Shown piece by piece: positions 27,514 to 35,556 of a DNA stretch of 64,000 bases (its first letter is position 1; each line of letters begins with the position of its first letter). Both the position numbers and the translations under genes were made by a program. The notes under the pieces are model-generated. The model made no database searches, was not told the DNA's origin, and was given only the letters and a program-made list of their open reading frames with translations. Origin of the DNA: Deltaproteobacteria bacterium (GTDB taxonomy: Bacteria > Desulfobacterota > Syntrophobacteria > BM002). The stretch is from positions 5,315 to 69,314 of the forward strand of contig JAJDNL010000133.1 in NCBI GenBank assembly GCA_022340745.1, given 5' to 3'.

Positions 27514-29799
27514 CTAGGAACGTGTGCTCAGTATTGCAGTGATGAAGGGCAAAATGGCCGTCAGATTTAGCAAAGCAAGAATAAAGAGCGTCTGATAAAT
27601 TCCCACCGTAGGTATAAAAACGAGTCCCACCAAGAGACAGCCCAGGCAGGATCCCAGAAGATCAACACCATATAGTAAACCCGAGATTGGGCCGACTTGC
27701 GGTAGCTCCTCCAGCAATATCCGGTTGGCCAGTGGAAAGTGAACCCCGCCGAGAAAACCCGCTACCAAACTTACTACAGAGAATGCTTCCCGGTACATGA
27801 ATTCGTGATGGCCAAAGCTCAGCCAATGGGAATAATGAACAAAAATGAAAGCCAAACCGAGACAGAAGCAGGCCAGGACGAACTGGAAGGTGACGAGGGT
27901 TCTAATCTGTAGGGGTCTATTTCTGGGGTAGTAACTAAAGGTGAAACTCCCCATAGCCAACCCTATCATGAAGAGAGCTAACAGAATCCCGATCTGATAG
28001 TAGACATAGCCGAAGAATACTTGGAAGGCAAAAACGATAAGAATTTCCAGGGATATTCCAGTAAGGCCAAAGACAGTAACAGTGTAGAGTATTCTGCTTT
28101 TTGGAATCTGGGAAGCACCGGATCGAAAGCCTTTGGTACAGCTAGTAACTGCAACAACGAGGCAAAAGAGAAGCATGCCTATCCAGATGGTACGCTTGCT
28201 CAACGCTGAGAAGGCTTTTGCTATTATGGGCGAGTAGTGCGAGCCCCAAAGGAGGAGATTATAGGAATAGGCTCTGGGGTTAAGATCACTGTTTTCTTGG
28301 TTTTCGTCTGCTTCCTCGATCATGGCCATGAAACTTTCTTGTCGCAAAGGCGAAAGATCCCAGAGTATATAGTGATCTTGTACGTAGAGGAGATCCAGCT
28401 GGCGCTGGCGCATTCTTGCCACCAAGGTCTCCGGTTGTTTGGTTAGGATGCCTGGAGAATTTGAGCAAAAGAAACGGGCAGTTTGGCCAGGGAATACCAC
28501 CACTTCAGCGAAAACGCTGGATGCAGTTCGATAGAGGAGTTTCAAGTACCTAGCCTGAATAGGACCGAGTGCAGTCTCAGCTGCACTGGCAGTAAAAAAG
28601 AAAACGCCACCAGCACGCATCTTACTAGCGGCCAGGCGGAAAAATTCTTGGGTGTAAAAGCGGTTTATCTGTGCGGTAAAAGGTTCGGGAAGATTTAGCA
28701 AAATAACGTCGAACTTGTTAGATGTACGAGAAAGATAGCTTCGCCCATCTTCATAGAGGACTCTGGCCCGGCCGTCTTGCAGGGCAGCAGTCACATCCCC
28801 CGGCAGATATTTTTCCCCCAACTGGATGAGTGCGGGATCCAGTTCCACGTACTCTACCTTGAGAACACTCGGATGTAAGAGCAACTGCGCCAGAGATCCG
28901 GAGACCCCACCTCCGATGAGAAGTACACTCTCAGGCTGTGGATGTTGTAAAAGTCCATAGTGAACCGCCTCTTCAGCGCTCAATTCATCTGGGACTGTAA
29001 AGTTCCAGAGACCGTTTTCAAAGAAGGTGATCTGGTTCTCTCTGGCTACTACAACGATGTGACCGTAGATGGTTTCTTGAGAGTCGAAAAGGCGGAATCC
29101 GGACCATTGCCATTGGCGACTGGCCCTGTCCATATCTGTACTTCGGTATTGCACGGTGGCAAGGCCAAGGAAAAGACATGCAAAAATCAAAATATCAACC
29201 TGGCGGTTTCGGACGGCCTGTAGGGCGATTAAAAACCCTGCAGAGCAGAGAAGGAGCCCGATGGAGCTAGCGATCTGTAGTGCACTGAAATGGTGAATCA
29301 ATATGAGGGTAAAAAGGAGTCCTCCGATACCAGCCCCCAAGCCCTCCAGAAAGTAAACCAGACCGGGAGACCTCGTCCAGGCTGGTATTTGAGCAGCCAA
29401 GAGAGAACAAGCCAGACTGAACAACAACCCGGAGATCAGACAGAAGGGTGCAAGAGTGAGAAAAGAAATTGCCAGCATCTGCCCCAAGGTGACTAGCTCT
29501 CCGGCGCCGACCTGAAAAAGAGTACGCGCCGCCCTGATAAGGAAGATAGTCGAGACAAGGATGAGACCGCTGCCCCCCTGAAGGTAGCCAAACAAGAGCA
29601 GGCTGCCGCCATAATACTGTGACAGTTTGCTGCCTAGCAGTCCGCCAAGGGCCGTCCAAAAAAGCCAGGCAGCAAGGACGATGGCCACTGCCAATTCAGT
29701 GCCGGAAAAAACGGTGAGCAATTCTCGCAGTACAAGAATTTGACCAATGGTGGCCGCAAAACCTAGGAGGACAAAAGCGAGGATGGTGGTCACTTTCAT
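27514..29799 (-). CDS. membrane-embedded spermidine synthase-like protein (polyamine aminopropyltransferase domain fused to multi-TM regions)
   Basis: 761 aa. About 7 N-terminal and about 6 C-terminal TM helices. Central ..VLLIGGGVSGSLAQ..VEYVELDPALI..DVILLNLPEP.. spermidine synthase motifs. Confidence 0.7.
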   Translation of the reverse strand: MKVTTILAFVLLGFAATIGQILVLRELLTVFSGTELAVAIVLAAWLFWTALGGLLGSKLSQYYGGSLLLFGYLQGGSGLILVSTIFLIRAARTLFQVGAGELVTLGQMLAISFLTLAPFCLISGLLFSLACSLLAAQIPAWTRSPGLVYFLEGLGAGIGGLLFTLILIHHFSALQIASSIGLLLCSAGFLIALQAVRNRQVDILIFACLFLGLATVQYRSTDMDRASRQWQWSGFRLFDSQETIYGHIVVVARENQITFFENGLWNFTVPDELSAEEAVHYGLLQHPQPESVLLIGGGVSGSLAQLLLHPSVLKVEYVELDPALIQLGEKYLPGDVTAALQDGRARVLYEDGRSYLSRTSNKFDVILLNLPEPFTAQINRFYTQEFFRLAASKMRAGGVFFFTASAAETALGPIQARYLKLLYRTASSVFAEVVVFPGQTARFFCSNSPGILTKQPETLVARMRQRQLDLLYVQDHYILWDLSPLRQESFMAMIEEADENQENSDLNPRAYSYNLLLWGSHYSPIIAKAFSALSKRTIWIGMLLFCLVVAVTSCTKGFRSGASQIPKSRILYTVTVFGLTGISLEILIVFAFQVFFGYVYYQIGILLALFMIGLAMGSFTFSYYPRNRPLQIRTLVTFQFVLACFCLGLAFIFVHYSHWLSFGHHEFMYREAFSVVSLVAGFLGGVHFPLANRILLEELPQVGPISGLLYGVDLLGSCLGCLLVGLVFIPTVGIYQTLFILALLNLTAILPFITAILSTRS

Positions 29800-30056
29800 G
29801 TCTTGATCAATACACTATTTTGTCAGGCCAATCCAAGGGTTTTCATATTTAAAAGCAAGAAGACAGGAGACAGGAGACAGGAGTCAGGAGTCAGAATGAA
29901 AAATCAAATAGCGAATACCTCTTTTCTACTGACTACTGGCTATTTAGTTTCTTCGTTTTGCCTCCAACCTAAAGCGCAGCGCTCCTCCAACCTCCAACCC
30001 TATGCTCTATGCTTCTTGCCGTGTGCCTTCAAAGCTGACAGCTTCGAAATTTGCCC

Positions 30057-30085
30057 TTGACAAAAACATTCGTCCCAGCTACTAT
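30057..30085 (+). promoter_or_regulatory. sigma-70 promoter for fur
   Basis: TTGACA (30057-62), 17-nt spacer, TACTAT (30080-85), 27 nt before ATG 30113. Confidence 0.5.
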
Positions 30086-30112
30086 CGCAAATCGTTCTCA
30101 ATAAGGATCAAC

Positions 30113-30547
30113 ATGAAAAGTGAAATTGAGGTATTCAGAGAATTCATTCGCAATAAGGGTTTAAGAAAAACACCCGAGCGTGAACAGGTTGTCAGAGCGG
30201 TATTTGCCATCCACGACCATTTTGACGTGGATGAACTTTACGTGCTACTCCGGCGCGAGAACGAGAAAATCTCCAAAGCTACGATTTACCGTACTATTCC
30301 CCTGCTGCTTGAGAGCGGCCTCATCCAGGAAGCCTACTTCGAGGATGGGCATCTGCATTACGAACATATCTATGGGCATGAGCACCACTGCCACCTTCGT
30401 TGTCTAGAATGTGGTCAAATTATTGAATTTACAGAAGAAATTGTCAGAGATGTAGAGGAAAAGGTCGGTGAGCGTTATGATTTTCTTGTAACTGGACACA
30501 AACTCGAAGTGTATGGGCATTGTGTCAAATGTAAGGTGCACAGGTGA
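30113..30547 (+). CDS. fur: Fur-family transcriptional regulator
   Basis: 144 aa. ..KGLRKTPEREQVVRAVF..HHCHLRCLECGQIIEF..HKLEVYGHCVKC.. Confidence 0.8.
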   Translation: MKSEIEVFREFIRNKGLRKTPEREQVVRAVFAIHDHFDVDELYVLLRRENEKISKATIYRTIPLLLESGLIQEAYFEDGHLHYEHIYGHEHHCHLRCLECGQIIEFTEEIVRDVEEKVGERYDFLVTGHKLEVYGHCVKCKVHR

Positions 30548-30621: not shown

Positions 30622-31320
30622 ATGGAACGGTTACACCAATACGAGAAAGATGAATTCATCCACATCTGCAAAGAGCATGGCCTGAACTATAGCGATAAGA
30701 GGTTGCTGGTGCTCGAGGCATTCTTGGGGACAACAGAGCACCTCACTGTTGCCGCTATCAAGGAGGAGCTCGAAAGCCAAGGCCAGCAATTGGCCAGCGA
30801 CTTTATTGGCGAGACCTTGGATCTTCTCTGCCGCTATGGCTATGCTTACAAGACGGAATTTGAGGGCCAGGAGGTCCAGTATGAACATCGCCACATAGGT
30901 TGGCATCATGACCATCTCATATGCGCCGACTGCGGCAAAATTCAGGAGTTCCACAACAGAGAGATTGAAGCATTGCAGCGACAAATCGCCCAGGATAGAT
31001 ATTTTACCTTGCTGCATCATAAAATGGAGCTCTACGGCATTTGTGGAGAGTGCCGGAAACAGCGGCGACCTGGTATTCCTTTATCTTATGTACTTCCTGG
31101 AGAGGAAGTTGTTATCGAGCGATTGCTCGGTGGGAAACAGGTTCAACAGCGATTGGCTGACATGGGACTTATCCCCGGAACAACTGTAGAAGTTATAAAA
31201 GCAAGCGGACCCGGCCCTATCATCGTTGCCTTCCGAGGCAGCAGAATCGCCCTGGGGCGCGGCCTCAGCCAGAAAGTGCTCGTCTCTACCAATAACAACC
31301 CTGCCAAAGACACTGGCTGA
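30622..31320 (+). CDS. Fur-family regulator fused to C-terminal FeoA domain
   Basis: 232 aa in one uninterrupted ORF. Fur core (..HDHLICADCGKIQEF..HKMELYGICGEC..) followed by LSYVLPGEEVVIERLLGGKQVQQRLADMGLIPGTTVEVIKASGPGPIIVAFRGSRIALGRGLSQKVLV, a FeoA SH3-like domain. Confidence 0.7.
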   Translation: MERLHQYEKDEFIHICKEHGLNYSDKRLLVLEAFLGTTEHLTVAAIKEELESQGQQLASDFIGETLDLLCRYGYAYKTEFEGQEVQYEHRHIGWHHDHLICADCGKIQEFHNREIEALQRQIAQDRYFTLLHHKMELYGICGECRKQRRPGIPLSYVLPGEEVVIERLLGGKQVQQRLADMGLIPGTTVEVIKASGPGPIIVAFRGSRIALGRGLSQKVLVSTNNNPAKDTG

Positions 31321-31416
31321 GGAGTTCCTCTCATATTGGTTCCCGGTTACAATCCTTATCATCTCTGCAGACGAGGGTGAATTTGGTGGGACACTTTATA
31401 GGTCGAATTTGGAGCT

Positions 31417-31665
31417 ATGGTGATGATTCCATTGAGTGAGTTCAAAGAAGGTGAGCGAGGTGTGATCAGACAATTGAACGGCAGTGGCACCTTTCGCAAG
31501 AGACTGCAGGAGATGGGCTTTATCAGGGGATCTGAGGTATTCGTTGAAAAATATGCTCCTCTGCGAGATCCAATTGAACTGGTGATCAAAGGCTACCACG
31601 TGTCGCTACGGATGGATGAGGCGTCCCAGATAATGATGGAAAAGCTGGAGCAAGAACAAAAGTGA
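31417..31665 (+). CDS. feoA: FeoA-family protein
   Basis: 82 aa. ..LSEFKEGERGVIRQLNGSGTFRKRLQEMGFIRGSEVFV.. Confidence 0.8.
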   Translation: MVMIPLSEFKEGERGVIRQLNGSGTFRKRLQEMGFIRGSEVFVEKYAPLRDPIELVIKGYHVSLRMDEASQIMMEKLEQEQK

Positions 31666-33845
31666 AGAAAGAAACCATTACTGTTGCCCTGACCGGCAAC
31701 CCGAACTCTGGCAAGACCACCATTTTCAATAATCTTACAGGTACTCGCCAGCATGTGGGAAACTGGCCGGGGGTGACGGTAGAGAAGAAGATGGGAACCG
31801 TGCTCCATAACGACCACCGGTTGCAGGTGGTTGACCTGCCGGGGACTTACAGTCTTACCGCATATTCCATCGAAGAAATCGTGGCCCGCAGTTTTCTGGT
31901 TGACTCGAAGCCGGATGTGGTTGTGGATATTGTGGATGCCTCCAATCTGGAGAGAAATCTCTACCTCGCCACCCAGCTTATAGAGATGGGGGTAAAGCTT
32001 ATTCTGGCCCTTAACATGGCTGATGTGGCCCAGTCACGCGGCCACCAGATTGACGCTGAGAGTCTGGGTACTCTCCTGGGTGTGCCTGTGGTTTTCACTA
32101 TCGGTACCAAGAATCAGGGGATGAAGGAACTACTGGACAAAGTGCTGGAAGTGGTGGAGGACAGGGATACGGTGAGCCGGCACATCCACATTTCTTACGG
32201 CCACGAGATGGAGAAAGAGATCAAGAAGATCCAGGACGTTATCTGGAAGGATCCCTCAGTTGGCGAGCGCTTTTCAACCCGCTGGTTGGCCGTGAAATTG
32301 TTGGAAAATGATGCAGCCGTGCAAGAGAGGGTACGATCGTTCGGGGAGATCGGCGAAGAAATTTTGGCTCAAGCTGAGGCGAGTCGCGAGCGGTTGGTTG
32401 AGTTTTATAAGGACGACGCTGAAATGGTACTCACAGACCAGCGTTATGGCTTTATTGGGGGGGCTCTCAAGGAGGTCCTTAAAGTCTCCACCAAAAGCAA
32501 ACTTGATCTCTCCAGGCAGGTAGATCTGTTTCTTACCAATAGGATTCTGGGTTTTCCCGTCTTCATTTTCTTCATCTGGGCCATGTTTCAGCTGACCTTT
32601 ACCGTGGGGGCCTATCCAATGGAATGGATAGACGCCGGGGTGACCTGGCTCGGGGCCGTTGTGACTGCGCTGCTGCCGGCGGGACTCCTACAGGACCTAC
32701 TGGTCAACGGCATCATAGCCGGAGTGGGTAGTGTAATTATTTTCTTGCCCAACATTTTGATTCTTTTTTTCTGTATTGCCGTGTTTGAGGATACAGGCTA
32801 CTTGGCGAGAGCCGCCTTTATCATGGACAGGGTAATGCATGTCATTGGTCTGCACGGCAAGTCGTTTATTCCCCTGCTCATGGGTTTTGGTTGCAACGCT
32901 CCGGCGATCATGGCTACTCGCACCCTCGAAAGCGAGCGTGATCGGTTGCTGAGCATCCTGATCAACCCTCTGATCAGTTGCTCAGCCCGATTACCCGTGT
33001 ATATACTGCTGGCCGGCACATTTTTCGGAGCCAGTGCTGGCAACGTCATCTTCAGTATCTATGGGCTCGGCATTGCTCTGGCCATAGCCATGGGCAAGCT
33101 CTTCAGTGTGACTCTTTTTCGGGGTGACATCGCTCCCTTTGTAATGGAACTTCCCCCCTATCGGGCGCCAACATTGAAGAGTTTGCTGATTCACATGTGG
33201 GATCGCAGTCAGATTTTCTTGCGTAAAATGAGTGGAGTGATCCTGGTAGGTTCCATCCTGGTCTGGGTCCTCAGCAGTTTCCCACGAAGCCCCGATCTGC
33301 TCCGGGGCCAGGCTGTGGAGACAGGGGCCACGAGTGCCACCCAGGAACGGGTGCTCACCGCTGCTGAATCCCAACGATCAGCGTCGGCCTCGATGGTGGA
33401 CGAGAATCTGAAGAGTTCGGTAGCAAACATTGAAATGGCAAGGCTGGAAAATAGCTTTCTCGGGAGGTTGGGCCATTTCATTCAACCAATCTTTGCTCCC
33501 TTGGGTTTTGACTGGCGAACGAGTGTTGCCGTGCTCACAGGATTTGTGGCAAAAGAGATTGTGGTGAGCACGCTTGGAGTATTGTATGCAGCCGGAGCCG
33601 ATGTGAACGAGGAGAGTGAAGCCTTGCGCCGGTCCTTGCGGGCCTCAGGCATGACTGCTCTCGGGGCATACACCCTCATGGCTTTTGTGCTTATTTACAT
33701 TCCGTGTTTGGCTACGGTGGCGGTGATTCGGCGCGAGACCAATTCCTGGAAGTGGACCGGGTTTAGTATTGGCTATTCTCTGGTCCTGGCATGGATGGTC
33801 TCCTTCCTAATCTATCAAGGCGGGAAGATTGCTGGGCTGGGATAG
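31662..33845 (+). CDS. feoB: ferrous iron transporter FeoB
   Basis: 727 aa. GTG start overlapping feoA TGA (GTGA). G-domain ALTGNPNSGKTTIFNNLTG, gate motifs and multi-TM region. Confidence 0.9.
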   Translation: MKKETITVALTGNPNSGKTTIFNNLTGTRQHVGNWPGVTVEKKMGTVLHNDHRLQVVDLPGTYSLTAYSIEEIVARSFLVDSKPDVVVDIVDASNLERNLYLATQLIEMGVKLILALNMADVAQSRGHQIDAESLGTLLGVPVVFTIGTKNQGMKELLDKVLEVVEDRDTVSRHIHISYGHEMEKEIKKIQDVIWKDPSVGERFSTRWLAVKLLENDAAVQERVRSFGEIGEEILAQAEASRERLVEFYKDDAEMVLTDQRYGFIGGALKEVLKVSTKSKLDLSRQVDLFLTNRILGFPVFIFFIWAMFQLTFTVGAYPMEWIDAGVTWLGAVVTALLPAGLLQDLLVNGIIAGVGSVIIFLPNILILFFCIAVFEDTGYLARAAFIMDRVMHVIGLHGKSFIPLLMGFGCNAPAIMATRTLESERDRLLSILINPLISCSARLPVYILLAGTFFGASAGNVIFSIYGLGIALAIAMGKLFSVTLFRGDIAPFVMELPPYRAPTLKSLLIHMWDRSQIFLRKMSGVILVGSILVWVLSSFPRSPDLLRGQAVETGATSATQERVLTAAESQRSASASMVDENLKSSVANIEMARLENSFLGRLGHFIQPIFAPLGFDWRTSVAVLTGFVAKEIVVSTLGVLYAAGADVNEESEALRRSLRASGMTALGAYTLMAFVLIYIPCLATVAVIRRETNSWKWTGFSIGYSLVLAWMVSFLIYQGGKIAGLG

Positions 33846-34084: not shown

Positions 34085-34789
34085 ATGGCCATGAAAGACT
34101 ATCAAGTCAAAAGAATGTTCGAGACCATAGCCTTCTCCTATGACTTCCAGAACAGCTTTCTGTCATTAAGAAGGGATTCATATTGGAGGCGAGCCATGGC
34201 TCAGTGCCTTCGGTTGCCGACGGAAGCTCTTGTACTCGATATGGCCACGGGTACAGGTGAAGTAGCAATCGAGATTTGCAAACATCACCCGCGGGTCGGG
34301 GTTGTTGGGGTGGATTTCTCACCCAAGATGCTTAGATTTGGCAGGCGAAAGGGAAAGTTCAAGAGGTTCGACAGCCGTATTCACTTGAGTCTGGGCGATG
34401 GCCGTCACCTACCGTTAAAGAGTGCGTCCTTTGATGCAGCCACGATTGCATTCGGAATCAGGAACATTGAGGAACGAGACCAAGCGCTGGCAGAGTTCTA
34501 CCGTGTGCTCAAGCCAAAGGGGCAACTACTCATAATGGAGTTCGATATCCCTGACGATCCACTACTGGGGACCATATACAAACTTTACTTTGACTACCTT
34601 CTGCCTCCTCTGGGCAACTTGTTGTCGCGGACAAATTATGCTTACAGTTATTTAGCCACTTCCGTACACGGTTTTCCATCCGCACCAGAATTTTTGCAGG
34701 AAATGGGTAAAGCCGGATTTACTTCTTTGAGGATTAAGAAGCTTACTTACGGGGTTGCCAAGATATTCAGAGGAATCAAAAGCGCATAG
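34085..34789 (+). CDS. ubiE: demethylmenaquinone/ubiquinone C-methyltransferase (UbiE/MenG family)
   Basis: MAMKDYQVKRMFETIAFSYDFQNSFLSL.. is the UbiE N-terminal signature. LDMATGTGEVAIE SAM motif. Confidence 0.8.
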   Translation: MAMKDYQVKRMFETIAFSYDFQNSFLSLRRDSYWRRAMAQCLRLPTEALVLDMATGTGEVAIEICKHHPRVGVVGVDFSPKMLRFGRRKGKFKRFDSRIHLSLGDGRHLPLKSASFDAATIAFGIRNIEERDQALAEFYRVLKPKGQLLIMEFDIPDDPLLGTIYKLYFDYLLPPLGNLLSRTNYAYSYLATSVHGFPSAPEFLQEMGKAGFTSLRIKKLTYGVAKIFRGIKSA

Positions 34790-34962: not shown

Positions 34963-35556
34963 ATGAAAGTTAACTGGCCTGAAAGACTATGGGTTAACAG
35001 TCCATTGCGTTATCTAATCCTGCAGCGTGAAACCCAGTACCTCAAGAGGGTAAGGGATCTGGAGCCTGGGACTCGCTGTCTGGAGATTGGCTGTGGTCAC
35101 GGTGCGGGAGCCAGAATTATTTTAAGAACCTTTCAACCGGAGCGGCTGGATGGCTTAGACGTTGATCCGGCCATGATTCGCTTGGCCATAAAAAGACAGC
35201 CACATTGGACAGTTGATCGTCTTCTGTTTTTTGTTGGCGATGCACAGCAGCTGCCCTATGGTGATGGTAGCATGGATGCTGTGTTTAATTTTGGTATTAT
35301 TCATCATTTAGAAGATTGGGAGCAGGGGATAAGAGAGATCTGCCGGGTTTTAAAGAAGGGTGGCGGGTTTTATTTCGAAGAGATTTATCCTGCGCTTTAC
35401 GCCAATGTAATTACGCGCAGGTTGCTCGACCATCCAACTGAGAACCGTTTTTACGGCCCAGAGTACCGCGCGGCCTTGCAGCAGGGGGGTCTCAGGCTGC
35501 TTCCCGGGCACAAGGAAACGCGGTTTGCTATTCTGGGCGTGGCGGTGAAGGAGTGA
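34963..35556 (+). CDS. class I SAM-dependent methyltransferase (Methyltransf_11-like)
   Basis: RCLEIGCGHGAGAR motif I. Confidence 0.7.
   Translation: MKVNWPERLWVNSPLRYLILQRETQYLKRVRDLEPGTRCLEIGCGHGAGARIILRTFQPERLDGLDVDPAMIRLAIKRQPHWTVDRLLFFVGDAQQLPYGDGSMDAVFNFGIIHHLEDWEQGIREICRVLKKGGGFYFEEIYPALYANVITRRLLDHPTENRFYGPEYRAALQQGGLRLLPGHKETRFAILGVAVKE

Follow-up and report, generated by a model that had tools for sequence, protein, structure and literature searches.

Whether a Fur-family protein that carries a FeoA domain at its C-terminus works on DNA or on the ferrous-iron transporter FeoB is the question raised by one gene in the window studied here, a stretch of 64,000 nucleotides from the genome of a Deltaproteobacteria bacterium (contig JAJDNL010000133.1). 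This gene encodes a Fur-FeoA fusion protein and stands within a fur / fur-feoA / feoA / feoB cluster, a layout that had been proposed in a preliminary description made from the sequence and is borne out by the Pfam and TIGR matches of the neighbouring genes. The fusion is an uncharacterised, widespread architecture of known domains, with evidence of neofunctionalisation: the metal ligands of Fur are invariant in the family, the residues with which Fur reads DNA are replaced, and the C-terminal domain is a true FeoA. These features suggest that the Fur fold may have been repurposed as an Fe2+ sensor for FeoB, a possibility that we weigh below against an atypical repressor and other alternatives.

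Two complete domains in one reading frame

The fusion gene and the parts of its product are as follows:

30622 to 31320, plus strand: fur-feoA fusion gene, 232 amino acids, from ATG to TGA, open reading frame uninterrupted.
Residues 1-18: N-terminal helix.
Residues 19-85: degenerate winged-helix domain.
30679 to 30876, plus strand: winged-helix (presumably former DNA-binding) region, with the L1 loop G20-R27 and the recognition helix S59-Y71 (SDFIGETLDLLCRY).
Residues 86-148: Fur dimerisation and metal domain.
30739 to 31053, plus strand: complete Fur metal-ligand set, from alignment to Escherichia coli Fur.
After residue 148: short linker.
31078 to 31287, plus strand: FeoA SH3-like domain (PF04023), residues 153-222.
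Residues 226-232: disordered tail.

As the preliminary description had claimed, the 232-residue frame is intact and holds both domains. Pfam FUR (PF01475) matches residues 19-138 with 83.0 bits (cutoff 23.1) and covers model positions 2-121 of 121, FeoA (PF04023) matches residues 153-222 with 70 bits (cutoff 23), and the two motifs singled out earlier, HDHLICADCG and ELYGICGEC, were both found in the protein. A scan of one genome per species yielded at least 594 loci that encode the fusion; all locus statistics given here refer to the best 80 of them, most of which come from metagenome-assembled genomes. The same continuous two-domain frame is present in 80 of these 80 loci, and the fusion is therefore genuine and no frameshift artefact.

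The C-terminal domain is a true FeoA and not an SH3 domain of the DtxR type. It superposes on the FeoA crystal structure 3e19 with a template modelling (TM) score of 0.89 and a root-mean-square deviation (rmsd) of 1.2 A at 40% identity, and a search of all PDB sequences returned only FeoA chains (3e19 at E=9e-15, followed by 2k5i, 7r7b, 2k4y, 2h3j, 2k5l and 2k5f), with no DtxR-family chain matched even at E<=1. The hydrophobic clamp of Bacteroides fragilis FeoA (BfFeoA), which consists of F23, I27, M30, I59 and L61 (PMC8980893), corresponds in the alignment to BfFeoA 7r7b to V174, L178, M181, I209 and L211 of the fusion; L178 is invariant in the family, and M181 and L211 each occur in at least 90% of its members. 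Experimentally defined FeoA residues for FeoB binding are not given in PMC10353542, and the BfFeoA clamp was the only basis used. The domain carries a charge of about +3 to +4 and is more basic than the FeoA encoded beside it. Compared with free FeoA (3e19, BfFeoA 7r7b), the domain thus shares sequence, fold, clamp and a site upstream of feoA-feoB, but it is tethered to a putative dimeric metal-sensing module instead of being free-standing, and half of the family lies away from feoB.

The attachment of FeoA to a metalloregulator had been taken for an unknown arrangement, which was wrong, since most DtxR/IdeR/MntR/MtsR regulators carry a C-terminal FeoA/SH3-like domain. These proteins and SloR share with the fusion the order of a winged-helix, a metal-binding dimerisation domain and a FeoA domain. 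However, their N-terminal fold is that of PF01325 and PF02742, both absent from the window protein, which has PF01475, and their DNA-reading helices are intact, whereas the DNA-reading residues of the fusion are replaced. The FeoA domains of MtsR drive oligomerisation on DNA, and the FeoA domain of DtxR binds the linker. For a Fur-FeoA fusion we found no description in the full-text literature, including papers on Feo evolution and architecture; an InterPro-based survey of Feo architectures removed DtxR and 'other non-Feo' fusions by hand (PMC8980893).

Metal ligands and DNA-reading residues of the Fur part

The AlphaFold2 model of the fusion, built from a 101-sequence alignment, has a predicted local distance difference test score (pLDDT) of 87.1 and a predicted TM score (pTM) of 0.69. 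For the first 148 residues, the best superposition is with metal-bound, closed Fur (E. coli 8j6w, rmsd 2.9 A), and the range for holo Fur is 2.9-3.3 A. The Fur part reaches a TM score of 0.74 with Helicobacter pylori 2xig and of about 0.72 with MgFur-DNA complexes, and Foldseek gave target-normalised TM scores of 0.72-0.76 to holo-Fur of E. coli, H. pylori and M. gryphiswaldense. Open or apo-type forms were matched poorly, with an rmsd of 14-17 A (CjFur 6d57/4ets, PerR-Zn 2fe3 and one chain of apo-MgFur 4ray). With the known Fur structures (8j6w, 4rb1/4rb3, 6d57, 2xig) the fusion has in common the two-domain fold, the Cys4 Zn site and complete S2 and S3 ligands. When 81 family members were aligned with E. 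coli Fur, all 13 metal-ligand positions proved invariant (81/81), with the following equivalents in the window protein:

S2 site: E. coli Fur H33, E81, H88, H90 and E101; window protein H40, E88, H96, H98 and E109.
S3 site: E. coli Fur H87, D89, E108 and H125; window protein H95, D97, E116 and H133.
Structural Zn site: E. coli Fur C93, C96, C133 and C138; window protein C101, C104, C141 and C144.

The mean pairwise identity within the family is 0.42 in the winged-helix, 0.65 in the dimerisation domain and 0.49 in FeoA. Because the winged-helix is conserved and its S2 ligand H40 is invariant, metal-driven domain movement still seems to matter in these proteins. The fusion reaches none of the NCBIfam equivalog cutoffs for Fur, PerR or Zur, the best score being 71 bits against the 200 demanded for Helicobacter-type Fur. 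Conserved residues also occur away from the canonical Fur sites: the N-terminal helix has the nearly invariant H5, E8 and F12, and both H89 and H91 (in YEHRH) are invariant (residues 5-91, 30634 to 30894); these residues might form an extra metal site or an interaction surface.

The residues with which Fur contacts its operator were defined in a co-crystal study, in which Lys15, Tyr56 and Arg57 read the DNA and Thr17, Gln19, Arg20 and Thr54 make backbone contacts; among MgFur mutants, Y56A bound DNA very weakly, R57A not at all and K15A about 11-fold more weakly (PMC4506495). The fusion was aligned to E. coli Fur and to C. jejuni (Campylobacter jejuni) Fur. In the ungapped HMMER alignment to E. 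coli Fur, 'ATVYRVL' sits over 'SDFIGETL', and the DNA-reading positions compare as follows (n=81 for the family):

E. coli Fur K14: D in 59/81 and K in 1/81 of the family; N22 in the window protein.
E. coli Fur T54: F in 75/81; F61 in the window protein.
E. coli Fur Y56: R 26, K 12, A 8, E 7 and G 5, among others, never Y; G63 in the window protein.
E. coli Fur R57: E 36, D 20, Q 10, R 1; E64 in the window protein.
E. coli Fur R19: kept in 74/81; R27 in the window protein.

A control set of 15 standalone Furs, made up of E. coli Fur, the standalone Fur of the window and 13 taken from the fetched loci, keeps K/R14, T16, R19, S/T54, Y56 and R57 in 14 cases. Among the 16 nearest Fur-only proteins of the exhaustive search, 15 keep 'GL[KR]xTxQR' and 'ATV[YHQ]R', and the sole exception resembles a truncated family member. 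Every FeoA-fused protein compared, on the other hand, has degenerate DNA-reading residues, so that their loss tracks the fusion to FeoA. The net charge of the recognition helix follows the same division, with a mean of -1.5 in the fusion family, -3 in the window protein and +1.8 in standalone Furs; no basic residue precedes R72 in the helix of the window's clade. The net charge of the whole domain fails to separate the fusion family (mean -2.8) from standalone Furs (-1.8), and the value of -8 in the window protein is extreme; only the recognition helix separates the groups. The fusion therefore differs from Fur by the replacement of K14/K15, T54, Y56 and R57, by its acidic recognition helix and by the added C-terminal FeoA. 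Since the DNA-contact residues are systematically replaced, the label 'DNA-binding metalloregulator' that the N-terminal part had received is doubtful, and we infer from the alignments that its Fur domain has probably lost DNA binding.

Distribution, gene neighbourhood and domain variants

When 5.8 billion proteins were searched with a word index, 340 matched at E<=1e-5 with 37-92% identity, nearly all of them two-domain proteins, and 237 clusters at E<=1e-30 emerged from an exhaustive profile search over 1.84 billion representatives. The 340 matches bear no other annotation than 'Fur family transcriptional regulator' or 'transcriptional repressor'. The best 80 loci belong almost all to Desulfobacterota, bacteria of the sulfate-reducing type, with Desulfobacterales, Desulfosarcina, Desulfotignum, Desulfobacula, Desulfatiglandales and Desulfarculaceae among the groups represented, and the carriers include the cultured strains Desulfoluna limicola ASN36 and NaphS2. 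The closest relative of the window protein is encoded on the chromosome of 'Deltaproteobacteria bacterium bin435' (93% identity).

As eight of the 80 loci lie on contigs too short for a context call, 72 loci were informative. In 38 of these the fusion gene stands directly upstream of feoA-feoB or feoB on the same strand, often with overlapping stop and start codons (e.g., L005, L007, L008 and L014). In a neighbour-joining tree of about 225 columns, Feo linkage extends over the deepest branches and most of the clades, and the non-Feo contexts make up two derived clades. In the first of these, the gene order is RecN-like / fusion / secreted SH3b / PfkB kinase, and in the second the fusion lies between an MBL-fold (metallo-beta-lactamase) hydrolase and a RIO-like kinase. 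The loci of the RecN-type clade (L016, L025, L028, L039, L041, L042, L047, L058, L061, L069 and others) share a conserved non-iron neighbourhood, with a RecN-like ATPase upstream and, about 70 nucleotides downstream, a secreted protein with two bacterial SH3 domains; next comes a PfkB-family kinase, and a histidine kinase and a sigma-54 response regulator lie close by. The preliminary description thus holds for the window in two respects that do not extend to the whole family: feo linkage is seen in the window and in 38/72 loci, with about half of the family away from feoB, and a standalone fur adjoins the fusion at the window locus but is not a family trait, being found mainly in the window's clade.

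Several members carry further domains. Proteins of the type Fur-FeoA-FeoA (314-357 amino acids) are encoded directly upstream of feoB (loci L013, L024, L036, L045, L052, L066 and L067; proteins P0103, P0060, P0067 and P0122). Their second FeoA resembles the separate FeoA of the window, the fusion gene and the feoA that follows it being merged, and they are a Rosetta-stone link. In six clusters of distant variants (P0183, P0195, P0213, P0217, P0191 and P0241), the only members with the two DtxR domains, the chain consists of DtxR_N, DtxR_C, Fur and FeoA, with the same degenerate Fur helix; at L081 (5001 to 6302) such a DtxR-fused gene heads an operon with an OprB porin, feoA, feoB and a 48-amino-acid open reading frame. 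These DtxR-fused proteins hold two different metalloregulator metal-binding modules in one chain, and many have Arg/His-rich tails. A third type, P0215 (L082, 1066 to 2103), begins with a transmembrane helix and carries a CGGCGGCGG motif of the kind typical for the Cys-rich membrane peptide associated with FeoB. The motif at its N-terminus is spelled CGGCGGCGGSC; its gene is not near feoB and lies on a contig of 2.4 kb. P0197 and P0240 have in common an additional, conserved helix at the N-terminus but lack the anchor.

Around the fusion gene, the window contains the following features:

27514 to 29799, minus strand: gene divergent to the fur operon, for a 761-amino-acid polytopic membrane protein whose central part is a spermine/spermidine synthase domain (85.9 bits).
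30057 to 30085, plus strand: promoter-like TTGACA-17-TACTAT upstream of fur (10/12 match).
30113 to 30547, plus strand: standalone canonical Fur-family regulator gene, 144 amino acids (Pfam FUR, 101.5 bits).
31417 to 31665, plus strand: standalone feoA, 82 amino acids (Pfam FeoA, 75 bits).
31662 to 33845, plus strand: feoB, ferrous-iron transporter with an N-terminal G-domain, 727 amino acids (TIGR00437, 645 bits).
34085 to 34789: UbiE/COQ5-type methyltransferase, downstream of feoB.
34963 to 35556: second S-adenosylmethionine methyltransferase, downstream of feoB.

The start of the standalone Fur (30113, MKSEIE) was set by homologues, the program-made list of reading frames having begun at 30002. 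In this Fur the residues that read DNA are present (R, T, R, T, Y, R), as are the Cys4 Zn site and the S2 site, but two ligands of S3 are missing (D89 replaced by C, E108 by R; motif HEHHCH). It is 28% identical to the Fur domain of the fusion. It scores below all NCBIfam cutoffs for Fur, PerR and Zur (best 98.7 bits against 220). The change of D89 to C is common to 13 of the 15 standalone Furs of the control set, mostly from related loci. The standalone FeoA shares 32% identity with the fusion's FeoA domain. Its gene has two in-frame start candidates, ATG 31417 and ATG 31423; because the second, inside GATGATTCC, is the start conserved in the closest relatives L001-L003, the product may have 80 instead of 82 amino acids. 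The GTG start of feoB overlaps the feoA stop by 4 nucleotides.

The -35, the -10 and a downstream element of the promoter-like site are kept in L001-L003. This element, ATCGCAAA...TCTCAATAAGGA, follows the promoter-like site (30057 to 30112) and overlaps the likely transcription start. In L004 it reads as an inverted repeat, TATTGAG-N7-CTCAATA. The upstream alignment showed the conserved promoter and downstream element but no clear palindrome; the element is a possible operator, without likeness to the canonical Fur box. No match of at least 13/19 to the Fur box GATAATGATAATCATTATC was found near the promoter, and the only match to the 7-1-7 form of the box (11/14, at 31347 in the spacer between the fusion gene and feoA) is not conserved in L001-L004. 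As no convincing plus-strand terminator was found inside the fur/fur-feoA/feoA/feoB cluster, the four genes are likely to form a single operon, which TTGACA-17-TACTAT probably drives.

Possible roles of the fusion protein

That the fusion is a cytoplasmic Fe2+-sensing accessory subunit of the FeoA type acting on FeoB appears to us evenly poised between true and false. More tentatively, and with less than even confidence, we propose that the Fur fold has been repurposed as a non-DNA-binding allosteric Fe2+ sensor that gates or assembles FeoB through the tethered FeoA, which would amount to post-translational feedback on uptake. The Fur-like dimer would bind Fe2+ at its intact S2 and S3 sites and undergo the usual open-to-closed domain movement of Fur; closure would reposition the tethered FeoA domains, and with them the second FeoA encoded beside the fusion, on the N-terminal G-domain of FeoB, and transporter activity would thereby be tuned to cytosolic iron after translation. 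Transcriptional control would be left to the canonical Fur encoded upstream or, in some relatives, to the DtxR-type module. Metal binding by the fusion and its contact with FeoB are both predicted from sequence and model, and the direction of the effect, inhibition when the cell is iron-replete, is a guess. Where the sensor module is fused to DtxR domains, as in some relatives, it could link a transcription factor to the transporter.

Several lines of evidence support this role at FeoB. The metal ligands are invariant in 81/81 members and the model fits holo/closed Fur best; the DNA-reading residues have given way to others, and the recognition helix carries a net negative charge; the FeoA domain is genuine, retains its clamp and is feo-linked in 38/72 loci; and variants exist in which the fusion is joined to a second FeoA, to DtxR domains, and hence to a separate DNA-binding module, or to a putative membrane peptide. 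Since FeoA is needed for assembly of the Feo complex and stabilises GTP-bound FeoB, the FeoA domain has a plausible output. The coupling of iron sensing to FeoB that had been suggested for this protein is therefore plausible, and it is strengthened by the loss of the DNA-reading residues, the genuine FeoA, the feo linkage and the second-FeoA fusions, the contact itself being a prediction.

Two known systems offer analogies. FeoC of Gammaproteobacteria has a winged-helix fold. Once thought to be a regulator, FeoC interacts with the N-terminal G-domain of FeoB (NFeoB) and is required for transporter function, and deletion of feoC in Vibrio cholerae left feoB expression unchanged. It would be a functional parallel to a winged-helix that acts on Feo without binding DNA, with no sequence relationship to the fusion: FeoC uses a Cys-rich Fe-S motif and not Fur-type His/Glu sites, the FeoC Pfam model has no match in the fusion at E<=0.01, and the only cysteines beyond the Zn site, C16 and C71, form no Fe-S motif. 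The FeoAB protein of B. fragilis is a precedent for a covalently tethered FeoA, joined there to the transporter and here to a sensor domain; in FeoAB, FeoA contacts NFeoB in a way that depends on the nucleotide, and it stabilises the GTP-bound form (PMC8980893).

Other observations weigh against a role at FeoB. No feoB is found within about 6 kb of the fusion gene in 34 of the 72 informative loci. The winged-helix fold is still under selection (42% identity, with H40 and R27 kept), and R or K occupies the position of Y56 in 38/81 members, with a wing more basic than in standalone Furs, so that a non-canonical mode of DNA binding is possible. In DtxR-family repressors, the FeoA domain works inside a transcription factor, without known contact to FeoB. 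Finally, the membrane-peptide variant P0215 is a single cluster and scores 24.1 bits against PF12669, below the cutoff of 27.

The main rival view is that the fusion is an atypical metal-dependent repressor of the Fur family with altered operator specificity, whose FeoA domain acts as in DtxR or MtsR, by intramolecular control or by oligomerisation of dimers on DNA, and does not contact FeoB, a view that we regard as possible though rather unlikely. The full Fur fold is kept; the S2 site, which bridges winged-helix and dimerisation domain, is invariant, and R19 is retained in 74/81 members beside the basic residues at position 56 and in the wing; half of the loci have no feo linkage, the databases name these proteins 'transcriptional repressor', and the FeoA domains of the DtxR family mediate oligomerisation on promoters and are required for the structure and for the binding of metal and DNA. 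However, K14, T54, Y56 and R57 are replaced, often with reversal of charge, and in MgFur the R57A exchange abolishes and Y56A nearly abolishes binding; the recognition helix in the window's clade, with its net charge of -3, has no basic residue before R72. A conserved canonical Fur box was not found at the locus, the DtxR-fused variants would hold two DNA-binding domains, and the C-terminal domain resembles free FeoA rather than the SH3 domain of DtxR.

The fusion might instead serve as an iron acceptor or buffer, resembling a metallochaperone: docked on FeoB via FeoA, it would receive the entering Fe2+ at its Fur-type sites and pass it on or buffer it rather than regulate the transporter. The two labile metal sites of each monomer, in which no ligand varies, the additional invariant H89 and H91 and nearly invariant H5 and E8, the His-rich C-terminal tails of several relatives, the FeoA domain and the feo linkage would agree with such a function. 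We consider it improbable, as the sites of Fur are of the sensor type and without precedent for transfer, and as it leaves unexplained the conserved winged-helix, the selection for acidic residues on the former DNA-binding face and the DtxR-fused variants. Still more doubtful is a role as anti-Fur or decoy, in which the fusion would tune the Fur regulon by forming heterodimers via the dimerisation domain or by DNA mimicry with its acidic winged-helix. The standalone fur directly upstream in the window's clade and some others and the acidic former DNA-binding face would suit such a protein, protein antagonists of Fur exist, and a YlaN-Fur model was among the fold matches; yet the fusion is only 28% identical to the adjacent Fur, most family members have no adjacent fur, and a decoy leaves the conserved FeoA domain and the FeoA-FeoA fusions without a role. 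An assembly or frameshift error that merged separate fur and feoA genes is ruled out for all practical purposes by recurrence of the two-domain frame in independent assemblies, complete isolate genomes among them, by the same architecture in about 237 clusters at 50% identity and by a short junction between conserved flanks (R148 in at least 90% of members, L154 invariant), and nothing was found in its favour, the sole truncated close relative being P0039 (188 amino acids, Fur only, 90% identity).

The role of FeoA and the control of FeoB are long-standing questions for the most widespread bacterial Fe2+ uptake system, and the fusion provides a testable hypothesis, namely that FeoA relays the cytosolic iron status to FeoB. 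If this is true, a Fur-family fold would work outside transcription and the family would be a natural clue to the function of FeoA. Even if the fusion is a repressor, the Fur and DtxR families would have acquired a FeoA domain independently. The family is found in hundreds of species of Desulfobacterota, among them cultured isolates; as its annotation is throughout 'Fur family transcriptional regulator', predictions of regulons may mis-assign it.

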